Positions 29,790-64,000 of a DNA stretch of 64,000 nt are shown here, in pieces. The position numbers and the translations under genes were made by a program. The notes under the pieces are model-generated. The model saw only the letters and a program-made list of their open reading frames with translations, had not been told where the DNA came from and searched no databases. Source of the stretch: an uncultured Peptostreptococcaceae bacterium (lineage in GTDB: Bacteria > Bacillota > Clostridia > Peptostreptococcales > BM714); the NCBI GenBank assembly GCA_964484935.1, contig CAZAFW010000004.1:1911-65910 (forward strand), read 5' to 3'. Each line of letters starts with the position of its first letter. The stretch's first letter is position 1.

Positions 29790-29829
29790 CCATCATTTTT
29801 AACCCTGCAAATCAGCGCCTCATCAACGT

Positions 29830-29985
29830 CAATACCTCGATGACAGTGACATTCCTGTTCGACATGCCCCCAACATGCGGAATGCTTCAGGCAGCTTCCC
29901 CACATTTCGGCGATTGCACCTTTCATGCCGCCATGCCTGAAAAACAGCGTCCATTACTTATTGCACCCGCACCTCCAACTTACAA
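29830..29985 (-). promoter_or_regulatory. Lysine riboswitch (L-box) aptamer controlling lysA-lysC
   Basis: The minus strand reads GGAGGTGCG..AATAAGTAATGG..GAAAGGTGCAATCGCCGAAAT..TTGGGGGCATGTCGAACAGGAATGTCACTGTCATCGAGG. This matches the conserved blocks I recall from the B. subtilis lysC leader (AGAGGTGCG, GAGTA, GAAAGGGGAGCGTCGCCGAAG, CTGTCA). Confidence 0.85.
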
Positions 29986-30167
29986 TAGAAGTTATTCAAT
30001 TCATTTATTCGTATAGTCTACAATACGCTTTGCCTGTTGTCAACTCACAAACGATTGTTTAATTGTTCAAACAATCCGTTTTCATTTGACAAACACTACA
30101 CGCTATTATATCATATATGTATAAATATACCTTTTATGTGTATTAATAATTTAATCGTTTCGATTTG

Positions 30168-30325
30168 TGCGAAAGAGGAGCATTTACAATAATTAGACCG
30201 GCATACAACGGGAAATGGTGCCGATTGAAAGGTGTATTTGCCGAAAACAATGTTTATGCCCGAAACAATACATTGTTTGGGACCATGTCCGAACAGGCTT
30301 GGTACTGTCATTCCCATTCAACAAT
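30168..30325 (+). promoter_or_regulatory. Second lysine riboswitch (L-box) aptamer, controlling the NhaC-family transporter operon
   Basis: The plus strand reads GAAAGAGGAGC..TAATTAGACC..GAAAGGTGTATTTGCCGAAAAC..TTTGGGACCATGTCCGAACAGGCTTGGTACTGTCATTCCC. It shares the same core blocks as the divergent copy. Confidence 0.8.
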
Positions 30326-30379
30326 TGGTAATGAAGAGCTTTTTGCACAGATGAAAGATTACTGTGTAGCTGTCTATGG

Positions 30380-37844: not shown

Positions 37845-38090
37845 ATTAAAAGCCTTCCATCCCGCGTAAGGAACGAAAGGCTTTTCCGCGGTGCCACCCG
37901 ATTGACAGTCTCTGCCCATCTCATTATCGATATAACGGTCGATTCCGTCTGCGCCTACTAATTTCTCTTTTCGGGCAGAAGCTCGGAAGGGTTCTTAGTC
38001 AAATGCTCCACACCGGACTCACACCATCTCCGGTTCGCTATAGGCTTCTGCGCAAGACTACTCTCTTCCTCATCGCTTAATATTTCATTA
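37845..38090 (-). promoter_or_regulatory. T-box leader (tRNA-sensing riboswitch) of asnS
   Basis: On the minus strand there is an AGAGAGTA GA-motif and a stem I helix GCAGAAGC...GCTTCTGC. An AAC (Asn) triplet at 37993..37991 is the candidate specifier. The T-box sequence AATCGGGTGGCACCGCGG lies at 37886..37903. A terminator AAAGCCTTTC...GGAAGGCTTTTAAT lies at 37848..37885. Confidence 0.85.
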
Positions 38091-40380: not shown

Positions 40381-40472
40381 CATACCAAAAATCATTTGTG
40401 GCGTAATTGACCGAAGCCGCTTGACTGACTATTTTTTTGATGTTATGATATTTAAAGAATTAAATATGGACG

Positions 40473-40596
40473 CCTTTAATTTGACCCCGTGAGGTTAAGA
40501 AGGAACAAACAAGTGCAAGATACTTGTATGGTTTTCATGACTGTAAAGGAATGAAACAAGCCTTTCTGCTTCGCGAGCAGAAAGGCTTTATTTATT
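40473..40596 (+). promoter_or_regulatory. PyrR-dependent transcription attenuator upstream of pyrP
   Basis: CCTTTAATTTGACCCCGTGAGGTTAAGAAGG (40473..40503) resembles the PyrR binding loop as I recall it (UUUAA..CCAGAGAGGYU..AGAAGG). An intrinsic terminator follows: AAGCCTTTCTGC-ttcgcga-GCAGAAAGGCTT plus TATTTATT (40558..40596). Confidence 0.65.
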
Positions 40597-41886: not shown

Positions 41887-41904
41887 GATATTCCAAAAAA
41901 TCGG

Positions 41905-43803
41905 GTAGGAGGTAGATAATTAGTTTATCTACCGACCTCCCACAGCACCGTACGTACGGATCCGTATACGGCGCTTCTCTAGTTTTCACATATTTTCAGA
42001 TAGTAGTCAGTCATGGATATATATCCGCGTCTGGCTATTTCTTTGTTTGTAAGTACACTATTGAGCATTATTGCTGACCGCCATATTCCTTTGCGACAAT
42101 TCGCTAATTCGTGTACTTTCCATTCAGGCAAACCGAATTTCTGAACCATTCGGTATCTCGTCTTGATTCTCTTCCATTGTTTCCAATACACCGCCCTGAT
42201 TTTACGACGCAACCATTCATCCGTATTCTTTAGCAATTTCTTCATGTTCGCAAGCGAAAAATAATTTACCCACCCTCTTATGAATTGCGTTAATTTATAT
42301 GCTCTGTATTCATTACCCCATCCGTTATTTCTAGATGTGAGTTCACTGAACTTTGCTTTCATCTTCGCCACTGATTTCGGATGTACTCTCAACCTACATT
42401 TTCCTTTGTATCTGTAGAAACTGTAGCCAAGATATTTCACTTTGCTTACATGTGCCACTTTGGTTTTCTCTCGGTTCACTTTCAGAAAAAGCTTCCTTTC
42501 GATAAACCACGTGATACTTTCAAGGGTCCTCTCTGCACTCTTTCTGCTTTTACAGAAAATCATGCTGTCGTCCGCATAGCGCACGAATACGTGCCCTCTG
42601 CGCTTAAGTTCCTTATCCAGTTCATTCAGCATGATATTGCTAAGTAGTGGGTTCAGTGGTCCGCCTTGAGGCATTCCAACATCTGTCTTTTCAAATATCC
42701 CATTTCGAATAACTCCTGCATTGAGATACTTGTGGATTAGCGATATTACTCTGCCATCCTTGATGGTTCGCGATAATACTTCTATGAGTTTACTTTGACA
42801 TACTGTATCAAAAAATTTCTCCAAGTCCATATCTACCACGTATACATAACCATCATTAACATTCTGCTGACATTGTTTCAGTGCATTGTGTGCTCCTCGC
42901 TTTGGCCTGAAACCATAACTATTCTCCGAAAACTGTTCCTCATAGATTGGGGAAAGTACTTGCGTAATAGCCTGTTGAAATACTCGGTCAACTACTGTTG
43001 GTACTCCCAATTTTCGGACTTCGCCTTTTGTTTCTTTGGGTATTTCTACCCTTCGGACTGGGGTGGGTTTGTATTTCCCATCCTTTAACTTTTGGATAAG
43101 TTGCTTTTTGTTGTCTTTGAGAAAGGTTAGAAGTTCATCCACACTCATCCCATCGACTCCGCCTGCTCCTTTGTTTGATTTCACTTTCTTATATGCCTTG
43201 TTCAAGTTCCCAGGCTGTAAAATCCGTTCCAACAGTTCGTCCATCTGAAAATCTGTGATGATGTGGTTGTTTTCAGTAATCCTCGAATGAGCGGACACTT
43301 CTGCATACTCTTTCTGTTCCGCAGATACCCTTTGCAGATAGTCCTCTTTATGAAGTTGTCTGTCCTTAATTTCATTCTTGGTTTCATTCATTTACTCACA
43401 TCTCCTAAAGTTCAGTCCTTCCCAACACTTTTGCAAACGCATTGGTACTATAACCTCTGCTGACTTCTCATGATTAATCTTATTTCAACCATAACCGCAA
43501 ATGTTTTATTGCACCCGTTATGTCCATGAGATCTCCCCGGGTAAGAACGCAATCTTTCCTTCCACCTATCCGCCACATTTACACCGCTTGCTCCGAACAG
43601 TTTAGGACTTTGGTTTGTAAGGCAACCTTATCCAGCAAGCGTATGCCTTGTATGTGATTTCTGTTCGTCGGACCGGAAGTTTGCCGCCGGCTTCCTTCAG
43701 ATTCCTCGTCGCCGAGGACACCCTTGCCTTAGACTATGTGCTTGGCACTGTTAACCCGCACTAGGGACTTTCACCCATTAGATTGCGCCCATGCCGGGCG
43801 CAC
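41905..43803 (-). mobile_element. Group II intron, bacterial class-C-like, apparently intact (1899 bp)
   Basis: The minus-strand 5' end is GTGCGCCCGG at 43803, 4 nt after the terminator T-run (TTTTGAGG). Domain V is at 41975..41944 (AGCGCCGUAUACGGAUCCGUACGUACGGUGCU: AGC triad, 2-nt bulge, 32 nt). A domain VI hairpin follows, and the 3' end is ...CCTCCTAC at 41905. The RT/maturase ORF sits inside, where domain IV would be. Confidence 0.85.
41979..43391 (-). CDS. Group II intron-encoded reverse transcriptase/maturase (no endonuclease domain evident)
   Basis: 470 aa with RT blocks including VRYADDSMIF (YADD) and a maturase/X domain (GWVNYFSLANMKK). The protein ends shortly afterwards, with no HNH cysteine motifs. 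Confidence 0.93.
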   Translation of the reverse strand: MNETKNEIKDRQLHKEDYLQRVSAEQKEYAEVSAHSRITENNHIITDFQMDELLERILQPGNLNKAYKKVKSNKGAGGVDGMSVDELLTFLKDNKKQLIQKLKDGKYKPTPVRRVEIPKETKGEVRKLGVPTVVDRVFQQAITQVLSPIYEEQFSENSYGFRPKRGAHNALKQCQQNVNDGYVYVVDMDLEKFFDTVCQSKLIEVLSRTIKDGRVISLIHKYLNAGVIRNGIFEKTDVGMPQGGPLNPLLSNIMLNELDKELKRRGHVFVRYADDSMIFCKSRKSAERTLESITWFIERKLFLKVNREKTKVAHVSKVKYLGYSFYRYKGKCRLRVHPKSVAKMKAKFSELTSRNNGWGNEYRAYKLTQFIRGWVNYFSLANMKKLLKNTDEWLRRKIRAVYWKQWKRIKTRYRMVQKFGLPEWKVHELANCRKGIWRSAIMLNSVLTNKEIARRGYISMTDYYLKICEN

Positions 43804-47994: not shown

Positions 47995-48146
47995 ATTAGG
48001 CCCCCCTTGTTTTATTATTTGATTTATACTCATAAACGGGCGGCTGTAAACCAAAAATGCAAATCTTTCCAAACAAGCTTGCCAACAACCGTTTTTTGAA
48101 ACATAATGAATATATCAAACAATATAAAATGAATGGAGTGATTAAT

Positions 48147-49805
48147 TTGAATATCAGCTTTCTAGGAGCCTCAGGAACAGTCACCGGATCAAACTATCTT
48201 ATAACAACAGAAAATTACAAATTCATATTGGACTGCGGTCAATTTCAGGGCGGCAAAAAAACCGAAGCCATGAACTTTACCGATTTCGCATACAACCCCG
48301 CAGAAATAGATTTCATGATTCTGAGCCATGCTCATATAGACCACAGCGGCAGAATTCCCAAGCTCGTCAAGGAAGGTTTCAAGGGCCGCATTTATTGCAC
48401 GCGTGGAACCTCGGACCTCTCTGACATACTCTTGAAGGACAGCGGATATATACACGAGAAAGAAACTGAATGGGAAAACCGAAAAAGGGCTCGGGCAGGA
48501 CTGCCTGAAGTCAAACCTCTCTATACGGTTGCGGACGCAGAAGTTGCAGTAAGATACCTCTATCCCGTACTTTACAACCAGACCATCCTGATAAACGACG
48601 AAGTAACGGTCAGGTTCAAGGACGCAGGACACATACTGGGTTCGTCAATAGTCGAAATATGGGTAAAAGAAAACAGCCATGAAAAGAAATTGGTGTTCTC
48701 GGGAGATATTGGAATGATGAACAAGCCCCTTCTTAGGGACCCCGAATTCATCGACGAGGCGGATTACCTTCTTATTGAATCCACATACGGAAACAGATTC
48801 CACGAAAATCCCGAACAAAGGATAGACAAGCTGATAAAAATAATATTGGAAACAACTGACCGTGGCGGAACAGTTGTAATTCCTTCATTCGCAGTCGGCA
48901 GGACTCAGGAGATCATCTACGAACTGAACAAATACTACGACAACAGGGAAGAAGGCAAGCGTTTCAACAAGATACCCGTATACATCGACAGTCCTTTGGC
49001 AACAAGAGCAACTGAAATTTTCCGCAAGAATGCAGAAGTATTCGACGAAGAGACTCGCGAATTCATAATGAGCGGCGACAATCCACTCGACTTCAAAAAT
49101 CTGCATTTCACAAAAACAGTCGAGGAGTCTATAGCGCTAAATAAAAGCGAAGCTCCAAAAATTGTAATTTCCGCGAGCGGAATGGCAAATGCGGGACGAA
49201 TCAAGCATCATCTCAAACACAACCTTTGGCGGCCGGAATCCAGCGTCATTTTCGTAGGATACCAAGCCGAGGGAACTCTTGGAAGAAGAATTAGAGATGG
49301 CGAAAAAACCGTGCGTATTTTCGGAGAACAGATACAGGTCAATGCTGAAGTTCATTCAATCGAAGGTTTTTCGGGCCATGCAGACCAAAACGGACTTCTC
49401 AATTGGCTTAAGGGCTTCAAAAATTTCCCCGAGAAAATATTCATTGTACATGGAGAAGACGATTCAAGAGAAGGTTTCAAGGATGTAATTGAGTCAACCT
49501 TTGATGTAAAACCCATAATTCCAAAGTTAAACGAAGTTTTCAACTGTCGTATGGAAACAGATGAGCCTGTGGAAACCGTAGAGGAAGTACTTCTGGCCGA
49601 CAATGAGGATATAAAAGAGCTTATGTCCGATTTGAAACATCTGCAGGAAATCTATGAATCGACACTTGAAAAAACCGGCGATGTGTTGTCTAAAAAAGTA
49701 AAGGAAGACGAATTTCATCTGATAAAGAACAAGCTAATAGAATTGGAAAGGAACATAATCAATCTTGGAATGCTTTTGGGTGACCGTTACGAAGAGGAGG
49801 CATAA
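48147..49805 (+). CDS. MBL-fold beta-CASP family hydrolase (RNA-metabolising type) with a coiled-coil C-terminal tail
   Basis: It contains ISFLGASGTVTGS and HAHIDHSG (HxHxDH), plus beta-CASP and RMMBL regions (ESTYG, GFSGHAD). I prefer the TTG start at 48147 (GGAG 10 nt upstream). The ATG at 48129 is an alternative. Confidence 0.8.
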   Translation: MNISFLGASGTVTGSNYLITTENYKFILDCGQFQGGKKTEAMNFTDFAYNPAEIDFMILSHAHIDHSGRIPKLVKEGFKGRIYCTRGTSDLSDILLKDSGYIHEKETEWENRKRARAGLPEVKPLYTVADAEVAVRYLYPVLYNQTILINDEVTVRFKDAGHILGSSIVEIWVKENSHEKKLVFSGDIGMMNKPLLRDPEFIDEADYLLIESTYGNRFHENPEQRIDKLIKIILETTDRGGTVVIPSFAVGRTQEIIYELNKYYDNREEGKRFNKIPVYIDSPLATRATEIFRKNAEVFDEETREFIMSGDNPLDFKNLHFTKTVEESIALNKSEAPKIVISASGMANAGRIKHHLKHNLWRPESSVIFVGYQAEGTLGRRIRDGEKTVRIFGEQIQVNAEVHSIEGFSGHADQNGLLNWLKGFKNFPEKIFIVHGEDDSREGFKDVIESTFDVKPIIPKLNEVFNCRMETDEPVETVEEVLLADNEDIKELMSDLKHLQEIYESTLEKTGDVLSKKVKEDEFHLIKNKLIELERNIINLGMLLGDRYEEEA

Positions 49806-51109: not shown

Positions 51110-52111
51110 TCAAAATTCTTTGCCGCCTTCTCCTCTTTTTCCCGAAAGATTGAACGCCGTTTTTTTCAACAAAGCTTCATTGAAAGGACACTCCGCCATA
51201 CAGATGCTGCAATCGGTACCCATTCTGCTCCAAACCATGTAGCACCTCTCCGGGATTATGGCAGGCCATTCCATCTTTCCGTCCACCAATACCCTGCCGC
51301 CTTCCGGTATGGCTTTCGAAGGGCATTTTTCCACGCAACGCATGCATTTCATACAAAATTTCTCAACGTCCATATCGTCTTTTTCGTCAGTAAGCAATTG
51401 CAAATTTGTCGTTACTGCGCCCAGCCTGATTCTTGGGCCGAATTTTCTGGTCAGCACGAGTCCGGACTTTCCTATTTGACCCAAACCCGCATCAACCGCC
51501 ATCTTTTGCACCATTGCAAGATAGTTTCCGTCCATATGGGTCCTTGCCTCATAACCAAAACTTCTAATATAATAAGAAATCCACAAACCTATCATTGCAA
51601 CGTTTACATAACTCTTTACACCTTCTATGCCTGATTCGACTCTCGGTGCTGTATTTATCATATCCTCGTCCATTTCAACGGCAAAGACAATGGCATGTGT
51701 TGCATTTTCGTCGACAACTTGCCCCCATGCGTCCTGGGGACGGCCCCGGTAGGTATAAAGATGTTCCGGCTTGACCTCGGTAATCCCAACCATGTCCGCG
51801 CCGAAATAAAAAATCGCTTTTTTAATCTCTTCGGTCATCTTTTCCTTGTCCACTTTCATGGGCGCCGCATCGGGTTTTTTTTCAGCCAAATGCTTTATGT
51901 CGGACAAAAATTCGAAGCCCGCATTGCCGATTGGGCTTTTCATCTCGTCGAACTCCACGGTTCCCGGTTCCCCGTAACCCGGTCTGGACCTGAGCATGTC
52001 GTCAATACCTTTTTTTTCAGGATGCTTTCTGTAATATTCCTCGTAAATCTTCGAGCCCTTTTCATATCCCAATCTTGCAAACATGATGTCCCTTTCATCT
52101 ACATGTTTCAC
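51110..52111 (-). CDS. Reductive-dehalogenase-like / QueG-like Fe-S protein with no signal peptide
   Basis: 333 aa. The C-terminus has two ferredoxin-type motifs, CMKCMRCVEKCP and CSICMAECPFN. There is no twin-arginine or other signal sequence. Confidence 0.6.
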   Translation of the reverse strand: MKHVDERDIMFARLGYEKGSKIYEEYYRKHPEKKGIDDMLRSRPGYGEPGTVEFDEMKSPIGNAGFEFLSDIKHLAEKKPDAAPMKVDKEKMTEEIKKAIFYFGADMVGITEVKPEHLYTYRGRPQDAWGQVVDENATHAIVFAVEMDEDMINTAPRVESGIEGVKSYVNVAMIGLWISYYIRSFGYEARTHMDGNYLAMVQKMAVDAGLGQIGKSGLVLTRKFGPRIRLGAVTTNLQLLTDEKDDMDVEKFCMKCMRCVEKCPSKAIPEGGRVLVDGKMEWPAIIPERCYMVWSRMGTDCSICMAECPFNEALLKKTAFNLSGKRGEGGKEF

Positions 52112-52184
52112 GAGAAAACCCCTTTCATGCCTTAATACTTAAATTATACAGCATTTTCTCTTCGATTGGGCATATAAAATCACT

Positions 52185-52388
52185 CTAACTTATTTTCACC
52201 GCTCCCATTGGACACACCTTCAGGCAAATTCCACAACCCGTGCATATTTCATGGTCCACAGTCGGTACTTCAGCTTTAAAAAACCCTGTCTTCTTTTGAG
52301 CGACAGCATTCACCGGGCAAACCCTTTTCACCGGACAAAAAGGTGACTGATCACATTTCTTTGAATTTATAACTGCTTTTTTCGACAT
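52185..52388 (-). CDS. Small 4Fe-4S ferredoxin-domain protein
   Basis: 67 aa with CDQSPFCPVKRVCP and CTGCGICLKVCP. Confidence 0.8.
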   Translation of the reverse strand: MSKKAVINSKKCDQSPFCPVKRVCPVNAVAQKKTGFFKAEVPTVDHEICTGCGICLKVCPMGAVKIS

Positions 52389-52504: not shown

Positions 52505-52714
52505 CTATTCCATTGAAATCACTTCATACCCTGCATCTTCAATGGCAAAACGAAATTCCGAATCCCCAACTTCCCTCGATATTCTAAGCCTTGCGCTTCC
52601 TTCTTCAATATCCACTATGACATTTTCAACGCCTTCGATTTCATTTAAAGCATGCTCCACTCTCTTTTGGCAATGCTGGCATGACATTCCTTTAATCATT
52701 ATTATCTTGTTCAT
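52505..52714 (-). CDS. copZ: Copper chaperone (heavy-metal-associated domain)
   Basis: 69 aa with a GMSCQHC metal site in a beta-alpha-beta-beta-alpha-beta sized domain. A GGAGG RBS lies upstream. Confidence 0.9.
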   Translation of the reverse strand: MNKIIMIKGMSCQHCQKRVEHALNEIEGVENVIVDIEEGSARLRISREVGDSEFRFAIEDAGYEVISME

Positions 52715-52736
52715 TTTTTCCTCCTATCAATAGATT

Positions 52737-52761
52737 TCAGTTTTCAGTTATCAGTTGTCAG
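52737..52761. repeat. Short heptamer array TCAGTT(T/A/G) x3 plus TCAG, ending in an A8 run, 23 nt upstream of the copZ start
   Basis: Read directly: tcagttt tcagtta tcagttg tcag aaaaaaaa. The CAGNNNN register is the same as in the 35481 array, and both arrays end in TCAGAAAAA. Confidence 0.85.
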
Positions 52762-53050
52762 AAAAAAAACAAGAACAACTGCAAAAGCAAATACATATTT
52801 AATTCTTTTGCCCGAAACAAATACCGTTTATAACCCCACTCAGAATGCGACTCATCCCAAACTTCTATACACTTCATTCTTCTTTATATGAATTATCGGC
52901 TCAAGACCTGCTTGATCACTACGCCCTTCTGCCGCTTTCGCGTGCCCTGTGGGTATCATAACGCTTTGTCTTTTTTCAAAATCTACAAATTTCTTTTGGG
53001 ATTTTTGCAGTCAAGGCTAAAAAAATCTCTCTTTCCAAACATCCCATCAG

Positions 53051-53239
53051 AGCGATGAGAATGTTGCGGATTCAAGGCGACAATAAAACCCATGAGTGGA
53101 GCGTATTCTTAATCCATAGACTGGCGAGAATGCCTTAGTCCAAGGCGTTGATACAACTCTGCGAGTTGAGCGTATTTATAATACGTGATTGAGCGAGTTG
53201 TAGATTACAACGAAGAAATCAGGAATTCTCGCTAGTCTG
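53051..53239. repeat. Degenerate tandem repeat of about 69 bp (2 copies plus a partial third) in the copA-copZ spacer
   Basis: GAGAATG occurs at 53057 and 53126. CAAGGCG occurs at 53073 and 53141. GAGTGGAGCGTATT at 53094 matches GAGTTGAGCGTATT at 53163. A third copy starts with GAGCGAGTTG at 53191. AGACTGGCGAGAAT (53118..53131) is the inverted complement, at 13 of 14 positions, of ATTCTCGCTAGTCT (53225..53238). Confidence 0.75.
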
Positions 53240-53240
53240 A

Positions 53241-55700
53241 TTATGGGGTAAACTTTCGAAGGCGCAAAGCATTGCCCACAACCGAAACACTGCTCATGGA
53301 CATAGCGGCAGCAGCTATCATCGGACTGAGAAGCGGTCCCCCGAACAGATGGAGAAGTCCCGCGGCTATCGGTATTCCAGCCGTATTGTAGGCAAAGGCC
53401 CAAAAAAGATTCTGCTTTATGTTCCTGATTGTGCTCTTGCTGAGTTTAACGGCTGTTGCAACATCTCCAATTCCACTGTGCATAAGCACTATGTCAGCCG
53501 ACTCCATTGCAACATCGGTTCCGCTTCCAACCGCTATCCCTATGTCGGCCTGGGCCAGCGCAGGCGCGTCATTGATTCCGTCTCCAACCATTGCGACTGT
53601 CTTTCCTTCTCCCTGGAGCTTTTTGACCTCCGCGGCCTTTTCCCCTGGCAAGACTTCGGCTAGTACAGATTTTATTCCGACCTTTTCCGCTATTGCCACG
53701 GCAGTTTGCCTGTTGTCGCCTGTGATCATATACACTTCTATGCCCAAATCAAGAAGCCTCGCTACAGCTTTGGCGCTGTCTTCCTTTATTACATCCGCTA
53801 TTCCGAATACGGCATTGACCGAACCGTCAATGGCGCATATTACAGGAGTCTTCCCTTCCAGCGAAAACTCTTCAAGAATCTTTTCCACTTCACCACTTGG
53901 ACTTAGGTCCCTTTCATCGAAGAGTTTCCTGTTCCCTATCAAAACTGTCTTGCCTTCCGTTTCCGCCTCTACGCCTTTTCCAGTGAAGGATTGGAAAGCC
54001 TCGGGTCTTCTTAGCTCCAAGCCCCGTTCTTCAGCTTTTTTCACTATTGCTTCTCCGAGAGGGTGCTCGGACACTTTTTCCGCAGATGCTGAAATCCTTA
54101 GGATATCATCTTCGTCCATTCCATTGAAAATAGCTATGTCGGTCACTTCCGGCTCGCCTTTTGTTATTGTTCCGGTTTTATCAAATACTATGGCATTAAC
54201 CTTGTGGGCGGTTTCGAGCGCTCCGCCGCTTTTTATCAAAACACCATATTCCGCCCCCTTTCCCGTCCCGACCATTATAGCTGTCGGTGTAGCCAGTCCG
54301 AGAGCGCAGGGGCAGGCTATGACCAGTACGGAAATGAAGATGGTCAAAGAGAACACTGCCCCTTCTCCGGCAACATACCATGCCAACCCCGCCAAAAGGG
54401 CGACAGCCATGACAAATGGCACGAAATATCCAGAGATAACATCGGCAAGTCTCGCTATAGGCGCTTTGCTGCCCTGAGCTTCCTCAACAAGCTTTATTAT
54501 TTGGGACAGGACAGTGTCCTTGCCGACTTTCTCTGCAGAAAATACCAAGCTGCCGTTCTTGTTTATGCTTGCGCCGACCACATCGTCTCCAATATTTTTT
54601 TCAACCGGGATGCTTTCACCTGTCAGCATGGATTCGTCTACTGATGAATGCCCCTTTACTACCTTTCCATCAACTGGTATTCTTTCACCCGGTTTCACCA
54701 CTATAAGGTCACCGCATTCAACTTCGCTTATCGGTATTTCTATCTCCGTATCACCATCAAGAACGGTTGCCTGCTTGGGTTGAAGACCAGCCAGTCTTTT
54801 TATCGCTTCCGACGCCTTGCCCTTTGAACGCGTTTCCAAAAATTTCCCGAAAAGAATCAGTGTTATTATTGTCGCGGCTGTTTCAAAATACAGCTTCGAT
54901 GCGTATGATGGATCTCCCATCGATATACGCGCAAGCGCATATATTCCGTACAAAAACGCTGCGCTTGTTCCAACCGCTATAAGTGAATCCATGTTTGGGC
55001 TTCCCTTAAACAATGTTTTGAATCCGACAATATAAAATTTGTACCCCGCAGCCATAACCGGAATTACCAGCAAGAGTTGCACAAGTGCAAAATTCATAGG
55101 ATTGACCATGGGATCAAGCACCATTGGAAGGGGCAAACCGACCATATGGCCCATTGCGATGTAAAGGAGCGGCGCAGAAAAAATAGCGGCAAGCCAAAGT
55201 TTTGATTTCATCATTTTGATTTCTTTGGCCTTTCTGTCCGCATCGGCGTCATGATTCATAGATTCCGTTTCCACCTCAAGCGGAATATAGCCGGCCTTCC
55301 TGATTGCCGCCTTTATTTCAGAAAGCCTGACTTTGTTGGCGTCATAGGATACCGTCAACTTCTCTAGTGCAAGACTTACATCTGCGGAGTCTATACCCGA
55401 AAGCTTGTTGACCGCCCGGTCAACTGCAGCTACGCAGGATGCTCATGTCATTCCTTCAACCGGAATAACGGCTTTCCTTGTCTCTTTGTCCTCGAAAGCA
55501 CTGTAGCCTGCTTTTTCCACCGCTTCGTATATCTCTTCATTCCCCATAAGATTTTCATCGTATTCTACAGTCAACTTTTCCGTCGCGAGATTCACTTCCG
55601 ACTTAGCGACGCCTTCAAGCTTGCCTGTCGCCCTTTCAACTGCCGCCGAGCAAGCCGAGCATGTCATTCCCTCTATCCTGAATTTTTTTTTCATTTCCAC
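53241..55700 (-). CDS. copA: Copper-translocating P1B-type ATPase with two N-terminal HMA domains. The reading frame is continuous except for one in-frame TGA (55445..55443) at the first Cys position of the second CxxC site.
   Basis: The track ORFs 55443..55700 and 53241..55358 are in the same frame (55445-55358=87), with no other stop between them. The junction translates as ...[45 protein letters not shown]. The downstream part has TGES, CPC, DKTGTIT, SEHPL and GDGINDAP. Confidence 0.9.
55402..55431 (-). promoter_or_regulatory. Candidate bacterial SECIS-like hairpin downstream of the copA in-frame UGA
   Basis: The mRNA reads UGA-(11 nt)-AGCU-gca-GUUGACC-GGGC-GGUCAAC-a-AGCU. The upper stem is 7 perfect bp, the apical loop GGGC sits 26-29 nt after the UGA, and the lower stem is 4 bp. 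Confidence 0.45.
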
Positions 55701-55822
55701 ACCTCACTTTAACATTTATTGTTATTTACCCCCTGCGATTGTCAATATTCAAATTTGTCAACTCTACTGCATAAAAAGGTTCATTATGAAAAATCTCAGC
55801 AAATACATTCTTGCCGAGATAA

Positions 55823-63984: not shown

Positions 63985-64000
63985 AAATCACACTCCATGT

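Follow-up and report, generated by a model that had tools for sequence, protein, structure and literature searches.

A probable selenocysteine codon in the copper-exporting ATPase gene of an uncultured Peptostreptococcaceae bacterium

The copA locus and its in-frame TGA

The window examined in the current study (the whole stretch of 64,000 nucleotides) contains a gene for a Cu(I)-exporting P1B-type ATPase, copA, whose reading frame is complete except for one TGA, and a gene for a small copper chaperone downstream of it. The features discussed below are listed with their coordinates in the window and their strand:

53241..55694, minus strand: copA, a complete gene of 817 codons and a TAA stop for a Cu(I)-exporting P1B-type ATPase, with one UGA proposed to be read through (Sec84)
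55497..55688, minus strand: HMA domain 1 (HMA1), residues about 3-66, with the ordinary Cys form of the metal-binding motif, GMTCSAC, at 55650..55670
55281..55472, minus strand: HMA domain 2 (HMA2), the membrane-proximal metal-binding domain, residues about 75-138, with the proposed U84-x-x-C87
55443..55445, minus strand: proposed Sec codon UGA 84, at the first ligand position of the HMA2 CxxC Cu(I) site (GMT-U-ASC, motif at 55434..55454)
55407..55424, minus strand: candidate bSECIS upper stem-loop, GUUGACC-GGGC-GGUCAAC, 7 bp with a 4-nt G-rich apical loop, -9.0 kcal/mol, the loop beginning 25 nt past the UGA
55402..55431, minus strand: extended hairpin with a flanking 4-bp lower stem (AGCU/AGCU), from the minimum-free-energy fold
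53289..54623, minus strand: ATPase core, catalytic and Cu(I)-specificity motifs all intact, as judged from motif coordinates and family scores
54612..54623, minus strand: ATPase core motif TGES
54285..54314, minus strand: ATPase core motif of 10 residues
54168..54182, minus strand: ATPase core motif DKTGT
53562..53585, minus strand: ATPase core motif GDGINDAP
53385..53399, minus strand: ATPase core motif AFAYN
53289..53303, minus strand: ATPase core motif MSMSS
52505..52714, minus strand: copZ-like gene for a 69-aa copper chaperone, Cys form (GMSCQHC), separated from copA by a 526-nt gap

The copA frame runs from the ATG at 55694 to the TAA at 53241, and its sole internal stop is the TGA at 55445..55443 (residue 84). 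The original prediction, that the gene is split by this TGA alone, therefore held: both parts lie in one frame, with no other interruption across 817 codons. Comparison of the junction (GMT-TGA-ASC) with the GMTCSAC of HMA1 likewise placed the TGA exactly at the first Cys ligand, as had been claimed. When read through the TGA, the protein scores 660 bits on TIGR01525 (cut-off 346.25) and 633.4 bits on TIGR01511 Cu (cut-off 397), and it combines two N-terminal HMA domains with CPC (TM4), YN (TM5) and MxxSS (TM6), the Cu(I) signature of the P1B-1 subgroup of P1B ATPases. TGA is an ordinary stop elsewhere in the window, as predicted, terminating 13 of the 46 long open frames, and the genetic code is therefore considered standard; a scan of the window for other TGA-interrupted genes returned copA only. 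The best NCBIfam match of the copZ-like protein is CopZ (62.9 bits, below the 91-bit cut-off), with 60.2 against a cut-off of 62 on TIGR00003 and an assignment to PF00403 HMA, while the gap between copA and copZ contained neither an open reading frame nor an Rfam match.

Recurrence of the TGA and selection downstream

The exact 83-aa N-terminal product, with the 705-aa remainder after it, was present on at least 20 contigs, and ten independent assemblies (JGI, ENA, Logan), which showed 0-3 differences in 2,454 nt, all carried the TGA and an identical hairpin. Among the matches listed from species-representative genomes, 78 of 81 genome-derived copA loci had TGY (Cys) at the same codon, and a Tepidibacter MAG (L001) and a Lutispora MAG (L003) had TGA. 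A scan of metagenomes with no constraint on the downstream region identified about 37 copA/HMA loci with an in-frame TGA at this codon, corresponding to 32 distinct downstream sequences in at least six sequence groups, and the complete genes among them had intact ORFs of 790-870 aa with CPC. Two of the groups (D and E) have the UGA at codon 15-23, and one relative (L120) has an extra disruption 56 codons downstream. The question raised by the original prediction, whether the TGA recurs in orthologues, is thus answered: several lineages together supplied about 32 distinct copA sequences that carry it at the same codon. Sec forms were scattered among Cys forms in a neighbour-joining tree, which supports this scatter only, because it has no support values.

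The codons after the TGA are under strong purifying selection, with dN/dS of 0.09-0.20 across the 66 codons that make up the rest of HMA2 (compared with 10 orthologues). Restart in frame after the TGA would be possible only at a TTG, whose Shine-Dalgarno sequence is poor. In the 29 codons from the TGA up to this TTG, pN is 0.09-0.31 versus pS of 0.48-0.75, and these codons encode the remainder of a normal HMA fold.

The downstream hairpin

The mRNA fold proposed in the original prediction (AGCU-gca-GUUGACC-GGGC-GGUCAAC-a-AGCU) was reproduced at 55431..55402. The upper stem starts after an 18-nt spacer from the UGA, so that the hairpin occupies nt 19-36 downstream, with its apical loop at +26..+29 as originally placed. 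The lower AGCU/AGCU stem may be non-functional, since it is not conserved across the group A alignment. The paralogous stretch of HMA1 (GTTGAAAGGGCGACAGGC), which had been put forward as an internal control, pairs at just 3 of the 7 stem positions and forms no hairpin, in agreement with that proposal.

In the consensus model of Zhang and Gladyshev, given in PMC13188914, a bSECIS is a loop of 3-9 nt on a stem of 4-16 bp, with G within the first two positions of the loop (usually G[G/U]), a UGA-to-loop spacing of 16-37 nt and an energy of -7.5 kcal/mol or below. The copA hairpin agrees with the model on all four points, bearing out its description as SECIS-like: a 4-nt GGGC loop sits on a 7-bp stem, the loop begins with GG (GGGC, GGUC or AGGC in relatives), the spacing is 25 nt, and the upper hairpin alone folds at -9.0 kcal/mol (the 64-nt region at -20.3). 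The same strict test was also passed by 7 of 111 Cys controls (6%) and, with the energy cut-off applied to the upper hairpin alone, by 8 of 32 Sec forms; the strict single-hairpin energy criterion under-calls AU-rich Sec forms. Folding of the region, which had been suggested as a check, recovered the 7-bp stem and GGGC loop with an energy that was by itself unremarkable (z = -1.72 versus shuffles for the 64-nt region), and the copA hairpin ranked 9th of 204 HMA control sites; as a sole discriminator, fold energy was rejected as too weak. No SECIS-type match was found in Rfam, either in the whole window at gathering thresholds or in 55300..55520 at permissive E-values, a result that is uninformative because no bacterial SECIS family was among the hits.

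The presence of the hairpin followed the TGA closely. Its exact motif occurred 25 times in the 3.2 Mb examined, every time 18 nt past an in-frame TGA, and pairing at all seven stem positions was seen at none of 128 Cys-form sites, which settles in favour of the original prediction whether the hairpin goes with TGA or with TGY. At equal GC content, Sec forms had a best stem of 6.06 bp (4.18 bp in Cys forms) and a minimum free energy of -10.0 kcal/mol (-6.8 in Cys forms). Within group A (12 sequences), 83 of 84 cells of the core stem were paired and two stem pairs were altered on both sides; the observed score was reached by none of 500 shuffles, a statistic obtained on sequences that are related to one another, and since five of the seven pairs are invariant the covariation depends on these two. 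Two stem pairs also showed compensatory changes in group B. Cys forms write V-E-R-A-I-N as GUUGAAAGGGCUAUCAAC, which already gives six of the seven pairs, and Sec forms have Asp (GAY) where Cys forms have Glu, a substitution that completes the stem. The hairpin therefore appears to have been built out of ordinary HMA coding sequence. The literature found on this selenoprotein family did not describe the SECIS covariation, the Glu-to-Asp codon adaptation or the number of hairpin designs.

Like bacterial SECIS elements of the E. coli fdhF type, the copA candidate lies within the coding sequence right after the UGA and presents a small G-rich loop on a 7-bp stem; unlike them, it has no bulged U in the upper stem, and the primary sequence of this predicted element is dictated by the HMA coding of V-D-R-A-V-N. 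The apical loop of the fdhF element is GGUC, and two of the copA relatives (L109 and L205) have a GGUC apical loop.

Probable selenocysteine use by the organism

A contig that matches the window with 1 mismatch in 12,338 nt also carries a prxU gene, 6.36 kb outside the window. Its sequence reads FYPGDFTFV-TGA-ATE, with the TGA at the catalytic Cys, and this TGA was found in two assemblies. The read-through PrxU scores 418.6 bits on NF040737 peroxi_PrxU (cut-off 270), and downstream of the TGA lies a hairpin of 7 bp whose loop is at +18. The arrangement resembles that of the PrxU of Eubacterium acidaminophilum, a selenocysteine peroxiredoxin reportedly described by Sohling et al. in 2001, in having a TGA at the reactive Cys and then a 7-bp hairpin. 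PrxU belongs to an unrelated family that uses Sec as a redox catalyst, whereas the Sec of CopA would be a metal ligand. Prx is an experimentally verified selenoprotein family according to a selenoprotein review, and the prxU with TGA at its catalytic Cys indirectly supports the use of Sec by this organism.

The window, its 10-kb flanks and the collected loci yielded no selA, selB, selD or tRNA-Sec. ARAGORN detected no tRNAs at all, whether in the window, in 40 Sec-form loci or in the flanking loci; NCBIfam annotation of about 40 window genes gave only Clostridia-type housekeeping functions and no sel genes; and a motif scan for signatures of SelD, SelA and SelB had no match in 1.7 Mb, which is a weak negative. 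Because of these results we infer, rather than observe, the Sec machinery, and the organism presumably has selA, selB, selC and selD.

Interpretation and alternative explanations

Several lines of evidence, namely the recurrence of the TGA, purifying selection, the fit to the bSECIS model, covariation and prxU, support the original proposal of a Sec-containing (UxxC) copper ATPase. Judged from sequence, copA is very probably a selenoprotein gene, which would encode a full-length 817-residue Cu(I) pump with U84-A-S-C87 in HMA2. When a ribosome reached UGA84, the coding sequence 19-36 nt downstream would be folded as a SECIS hairpin, and SelB loaded with Sec-tRNA(Sec) would bind the GGGC loop and, competing with release factor 2, bring Sec into the A site; the remainder of HMA2 and the ATPase core would then be translated. 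Both the binding of SelB to this hairpin and the insertion of Sec rather than another amino acid at UGA84 are presumed in this mechanism. The resulting selenolate-thiolate site may alter Cu(I) binding, Cu(I) transfer or the oxidation resistance of the regulatory domain.

There are several other potential explanations for an in-frame TGA at this position. A nonsense mutation, a decaying pseudogene or a sequencing or assembly error, which the original prediction had listed as the alternative, would need a single base substitution in TGC or TGT; errors do occur in MAG and metagenome assemblies, and L120 carries the additional disruption noted above. However, the TGA is identical in the 10 independent assemblies, the 32 distinct sequences share the codon position at near-saturated synonymous divergence, the 817 codons contain no other lesion and retain all catalytic motifs, and dN/dS downstream of the TGA is 0.1-0.2. 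Because the TGA is reproduced, recurrent and in a frame under purifying selection, we regard this group of explanations as effectively excluded. It is also conceivable that UGA is read as Cys or Trp by near-cognate decoding, which the hairpin would stimulate and which would need no Sec machinery. Read-through stimulated by a downstream structure is known elsewhere, and the failure to find sel genes or tRNA-Sec in the window, flanks and collected loci is in keeping with it, but Trp as a Cu(I) ligand would destroy the site, and the loops (GGGC, GGUC and others containing GU) and the 17-25-nt spacing fit a SelB-type bSECIS and not a generic read-through context. Considering in addition the prxU gene on the same contig, whose TGA falls on the peroxidatic residue in a family with experimentally shown Sec insertion, read-through of this kind is highly improbable.

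Another explanation is a functional split gene, in which UGA84 is a true stop, the 83-residue HMA1 acts as a CopZ-like chaperone and a shortened ATPase is re-initiated downstream, with the hairpin being incidental or aiding termination or re-initiation. Transport by P1B ATPases does not require their N-terminal metal-binding domains, which are regulatory, and gene callers and GenBank divide the locus accordingly, into 83 aa plus 705 aa or a 'partial' protein that begins within HMA2. A precedent exists in E. coli copA, which gives two products, one of them a separate first-domain chaperone, by programmed frameshifting (Meydan 2017 and Drees 2017, as cited in PMC7558416). As in E. coli CopA(Z), recoding among the N-terminal metal-binding domains could give a short first-domain protein and a full pump, but the recoding signal here would be a UGA with a SECIS candidate, and any function of the 83-residue product is speculative; no CCCAAAG slippery heptamer and no in-frame X_XXY_YYZ was found in copA codons 60-100. 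A split gene is very unlikely given the strong purifying selection on the 29 codons up to the TTG restart, the position of the stop always exactly on the ligand Cys codon, the useless peptide that a UGA at codon 15-23 would leave in groups D and E and the separate copZ already present. The selenoprotein reading could itself include a second product. Failure of Sec insertion is common in bacteria, and UGA84 might act as a selenium-dependent switch that yields the full pump with Sec and otherwise the 83-residue HMA1 as an extra CopZ-like chaperone, although such an arrangement is unlikely. Because some relatives have the UGA at codon 15-23, such a switch would not be general and could apply at most to two-domain forms with Sec in HMA2; if true, it would correspond to the E. 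coli CopA/CopA(Z) frameshift, with selenium as the gate.

Relation to known selenoproteins and significance

The original prediction had pointed to rare Sec-containing HMA-domain or cation-ATPase families listed in selenoproteome surveys, and the listing of such a family was confirmed. [quoted passage not shown] This family (UxxC, TIGR01525/COG2217) was also counted in a marine worm symbiont metagenome. [quoted passage not shown] Unlike the catalogued members, it comes from an uncultured Clostridiales-type bacterium and is unannotated as a selenoprotein. Sec in place of a Cys ligand of an HMA-fold site is also a property of the NF041115 UxxU metal-binding selenoprotein and the NF045683 MerT/CopZ fusion selenoprotein, and CopA HMA2 scores 97.5 bits on NF041115 (cut-off 95). 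Those proteins are small and stand-alone or fused to MerT, some with two Sec (UxxU), whereas CopA would have a single Sec in the regulatory domain of a full ATPase.

Because such pumps have been in the surveys since at least 2007, copA adds a sound example to a known kind rather than constituting a discovery, and reading it as a selenoprotein gene does not overturn current understanding. The Sec variants show how a SECIS may evolve in constrained coding sequence, where a Glu-to-Asp change completes a near-palindrome already present. Roughly 30 natural Sec variants, with matched Cys relatives and several hairpin designs, would additionally form a panel for the effects of selenolate on Cu(I) binding and transfer. 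The main practical point concerns annotation: a protein-database search gave short fragments for the most part and no relative annotated with U, GenBank records copA and its relatives as a small HMA protein plus a shortened or 'partial' ATPase, and this two-gene mis-annotation would hide a selenoprotein and distort counts of copper-resistance genes.

The copA gene and its neighbours

Window coordinates of the copper genes are as follows.
55694 (ATG) to 53241 (TAA), minus strand: copA, 817 sense positions in one frame
52505 to 52714, after copA: copZ-like gene, Cys type

The sole break in the copA frame is the TGA at 55445..55443 (UGA84), and because of this single in-frame codon ORF finders split the gene into a piece of 83 or 85 aa and a piece of 705 aa. 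The junction reads V-E-G-M-T-TGA-A-S-C, while the first N-terminal metal-binding domain (HMA1) reads E-G-M-T-C-S-A-C; by this comparison the TGA replaces the codon of the first Cys ligand in the second CxxC site for copper, as the original prediction had claimed; this site belongs to the membrane-proximal domain (HMA2). Its other sequence-level statements, on the gene, frame, and fold, were also correct, as was the claim that TGA is a normal stop elsewhere: 13 of the 46 long open frames in the window end in TGA, indicating that the genetic code is standard. The gene is intact: the read-through CopA clears the cut-offs of both the heavy-metal P-type ATPase model TIGR01525 (660 bits against 346) and the copper subfamily model TIGR01511 (633 bits against 397), and it contains MSMSS and other motifs that in P1B-1 pumps are the signatures of catalysis and of Cu(I) specificity.

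The copA leader (window 55695-55760, minus strand) contains GCAGGGGGTAAATAAC, which adjoins a TTGACA-like box; its G-rich run resembles CsoR-type operators. Neither csoR nor copY was seen in the vicinity of copA. The 526-nt gap between copA and copZ (52715-53240) contains a promoter-like TTGACT...TAGATT and a GC-richer stretch, with no coding-strand ORF of at least 40 aa and no Rfam match. Directly downstream of copZ, on the strand of the cop genes (51110-52388, minus), are genes for a 333-aa reductive-dehalogenase/QueG-like Fe-S protein, which scored under the family cut-offs, and a 67-aa 2x[4Fe-4S] ferredoxin.

Recurrence of the TGA and selection downstream

The TGA and an identical hairpin were present in 10 of 10 assemblies (JGI, ENA, and Logan), with 0-3 differences over 2,454 nt, and at least 20 contigs encode exactly the 83-aa product with the 705-aa remainder behind it. 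Among the best 80 copA loci listed from species-representative genomes, two, both from MAGs (Tepidibacter, L001; Lutispora, L003), had TGA at exactly this codon, the other 78 had TGC or TGT, and no other metal-site codon was TGA. A metagenome scan with the degenerate pattern P-[IV]-x-G-M-[TS]-TGA-A-x-C, leaving the downstream sequence unconstrained, matched 115 stretches, approximately 37 of which were true copA/HMA contexts with frames open on both sides. Pooled with the genome loci and the window, these contexts yielded 32 downstream sequences that differ from one another and fall into at least six groups. All complete genes with TGA at the ligand codon (Sec forms, as opposed to Cys forms with TGC or TGT) were intact 790-870-aa ORFs with a CPC motif. 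The predicted Sec position was usually in HMA2, sometimes in HMA1 (L092, L143), and in both domains in L201; in a rough neighbor-joining tree, which carried no support values, Sec forms were scattered among Cys forms.

L201, a metagenomic copA on the minus strand, has tandem HMA domains, each with a TGA at its first Cys (GMT-U-ASC twice; 7231 and 7486 in reverse-complement coordinates), and its product would be a predicted two-selenocysteine copper pump. Another Sec-form copA (L120, plus strand, TGA at 1444), from the window's own sequence group (group A), has the canonical hairpin and an additional stop 56 codons past the UGA, with a long ATPase ORF going on in another frame, which points to either a frameshift in a pseudogene or a fault in the assembly.

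Selection was examined by comparing the window with ten group-A orthologues. The one in-frame codon at which translation might restart is a TTG preceded by a poor Shine-Dalgarno sequence; over the 29 codons that separate it from the TGA, pN was 0.09-0.31 versus a pS of 0.48-0.75, and dN/dS was 0.09-0.20 over the remaining 66 HMA2 codons. These values indicate that the region past the TGA is translated, and synonymous divergence near saturation shows that the TGA has long been retained. The alternative raised originally, a nonsense mutation, pseudogene, or sequencing error, is excluded for copA by the ten assemblies, the recurrence, the intact gene, and the downstream selection.

The SECIS-like hairpin

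In the copA mRNA, 55431..55402 forms the structure AGCU-gca-GUUGACC-GGGC-GGUCAAC-a-AGCU, whose loop occupies +26..+29; in the homologous stretch of HMA1 only 3 of 7 stem positions pair, in line with the original prediction. The bacterial SECIS model (PMC13188914) specifies a 3-9-nt apical loop beginning with G, usually G[G/U], a 4-16-bp stem, a UGA-loop spacing of 16-37 nt, and an energy of -7.5 kcal/mol or lower. The window hairpin agrees on all four counts (GGGC loop, 7 bp, 25 nt, -9.0 kcal/mol), as do 7 of 111 Cys-form control sites, making the criteria only moderately specific alone. When the energy limit is set on the upper hairpin by itself, no more than 8 of 32 Sec forms pass, because many stems are AU-rich, and the fold energy of the window's hairpin region is unremarkable (z = -1.72; rank 9 of 204).

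The comparative evidence is stronger. At equal GC and with the same protein signature, stems averaged 6.06 bp in Sec forms versus 4.18 bp in Cys forms and reached at least 6 bp in 23 of 32 versus 20 of 111, with lower local MFE in Sec forms; the sequences are non-independent, so p-values are indicative only. In the 12 distinct sequences of group A, all encoding A-V-D-R-A-x-N-K-L, 83 of 84 cells of the 7-bp core are paired, two pairs are altered on both sides (C-G to U-A and C-G to A-U), the covariation score was reached by none of 500 shuffles, and all slid controls were at most 53% paired. A second sequence group has a different hairpin, UCGAC-AGUUA-GUCGA, with its loop at +18 and two compensatory pairs. 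The hairpin also tracks the TGA: the 3.2 Mb of sequence examined contain 25 sense-strand copies of the exact group-A motif, every one of them 18 nt after an in-frame TGA, and none of 128 Cys-form sites showed full 7/7 pairing. In L006, the nearest Cys form, V-E-R-A-I-N is encoded by GUUGAAAGGGCUAUCAAC, which misses the full stem by a single A·A mismatch, and Sec forms have Asp (GAY) where Cys forms have the usual Glu; the hairpin thus seems to have arisen within ordinary HMA coding sequence by completion of a near-palindrome that was already there.

A second predicted selenoprotein gene

No selA, selB, selD, or tRNA-Sec gene was found in the window or its flanks; the evidence that this organism uses selenocysteine is indirect. 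A contig matching the window (1 mismatch in 12,338 nt) reaches 10 kb past its right end and carries another gene interrupted by TGA.
L206:3283-4005, plus strand, approximately 6.4 kb (6.36) beyond window position 64000: prxU-type peroxiredoxin gene, also on L207

This gene is annotated as AhpC-TSA fragments of 82 and 123 aa in one frame with a TGA between them, which was seen in two independent assemblies. The read-through, FYPGDFTFV-TGA-ATE, places the TGA at the peroxidatic Cys and matches the NCBIfam equivalog model NF040737 (peroxi_PrxU) at 418.6 bits, against a cut-off of 270; downstream, where a SECIS is expected, is a 7-bp hairpin (UUUCGGC-AGUU-GCCGAAA). Peroxiredoxin is listed in a review as an experimentally verified selenoprotein family (Sohling et al. 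2001). In both predicted selenoprotein genes of this genome, TGA stands in place of a reactive Cys codon and a SECIS-like hairpin comes after it; this makes Sec decoding by far the simplest explanation, and the selenocysteine reading of the original prediction is supported by recurrence, selection, covariation, and prxU.

Potential mechanism and alternative explanations

At UGA84, the hairpin 19-36 nt downstream would recruit SelB with Sec-tRNA(Sec), and Sec would be inserted in competition with termination, allowing translation to go on. The resulting copper pump would have a selenolate and a thiolate as the Cu(I) ligands of its membrane-proximal regulatory domain. Selenolate is softer and has a lower pKa, which suggests that such a site may provide higher Cu(I) affinity, faster CopZ exchange, or easier re-reduction after oxidation.

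There are other potential explanations. Annotation pipelines call two genes, and a functional split into an HMA1 chaperone and a re-initiated pump would echo E. coli CopA(Z). Evidence against such a split comes from the purifying selection acting on the codons between the two ORFs, the absence of any credible restart site, the placement of the TGA exactly on a Cys codon, and its occurrence at codon 15-23 in some relatives. Read-through of UGA84 with an amino acid other than Sec is unlikely given prxU on the same genome and the SelB-type loop and spacing of the hairpin. It is possible that Sec insertion yields the pump while failed insertion yields a useful, putative 83-residue chaperone.

Other features of the window

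41900-43718, minus strand: group II intron (Rfam domains D1-D4 and D5/6)
41979..43391, within the intron: intron-encoded reverse transcriptase/maturase ORF
29805-29985 (minus) and 30165-30349 (plus): back-to-back lysine riboswitches
37866-38082, minus strand: T-box leader upstream of asnS
40469-40595, plus strand: PyrR binding site upstream of the uracil permease gene
48057-49805, plus strand: beta-CASP metallo-beta-lactamase protein, 582 aa

The intron sits between the uracil permease gene and a 505-aa gene without an assigned family, and the riboswitch targets are a lysA-aspartate kinase operon and a 560-aa Na+/H+ antiporter-family transporter. Among NCBIfam models, the beta-CASP protein best matches the one for type VII CRISPR-associated Cas14, although its 450 bits fall short of the 800-bit cut-off; no CRISPR context was seen around it, and it is probably an RNase J/aCPSF1-like nuclease.

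Relation to known selenoproteins

The Sec-containing heavy-metal P-type ATPase family is already known: it was treated as such in 2007, when a worm-symbiont metagenome was credited with 7 of its genes; in 2016, a survey covering over 5,200 genomes put the number at 32 genes from 25 organisms; and the family appears in a 2022 review and is described as "predicted with high confidence" in a 2026 review. NCBIfam models NF041115 and NF045683 represent other Sec-containing HMA-type proteins. The window copA, as a predicted selenoprotein, shows every testable defining feature of the Sec-containing ATPase family.

Sec-form copA genes appear to be routinely mis-annotated. GenBank protein P0009, from a Clostridia MAG and matching the orthologue L162, is annotated as 'heavy metal translocating P-type ATPase, partial' and begins at an artificial Met inside HMA2 (MNKLSGIESVD...). 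The original observation holds, and the selenocysteine interpretation of the copA TGA is supported; the case is useful for annotation and provides experimental material for a predicted, unverified selenoprotein family.
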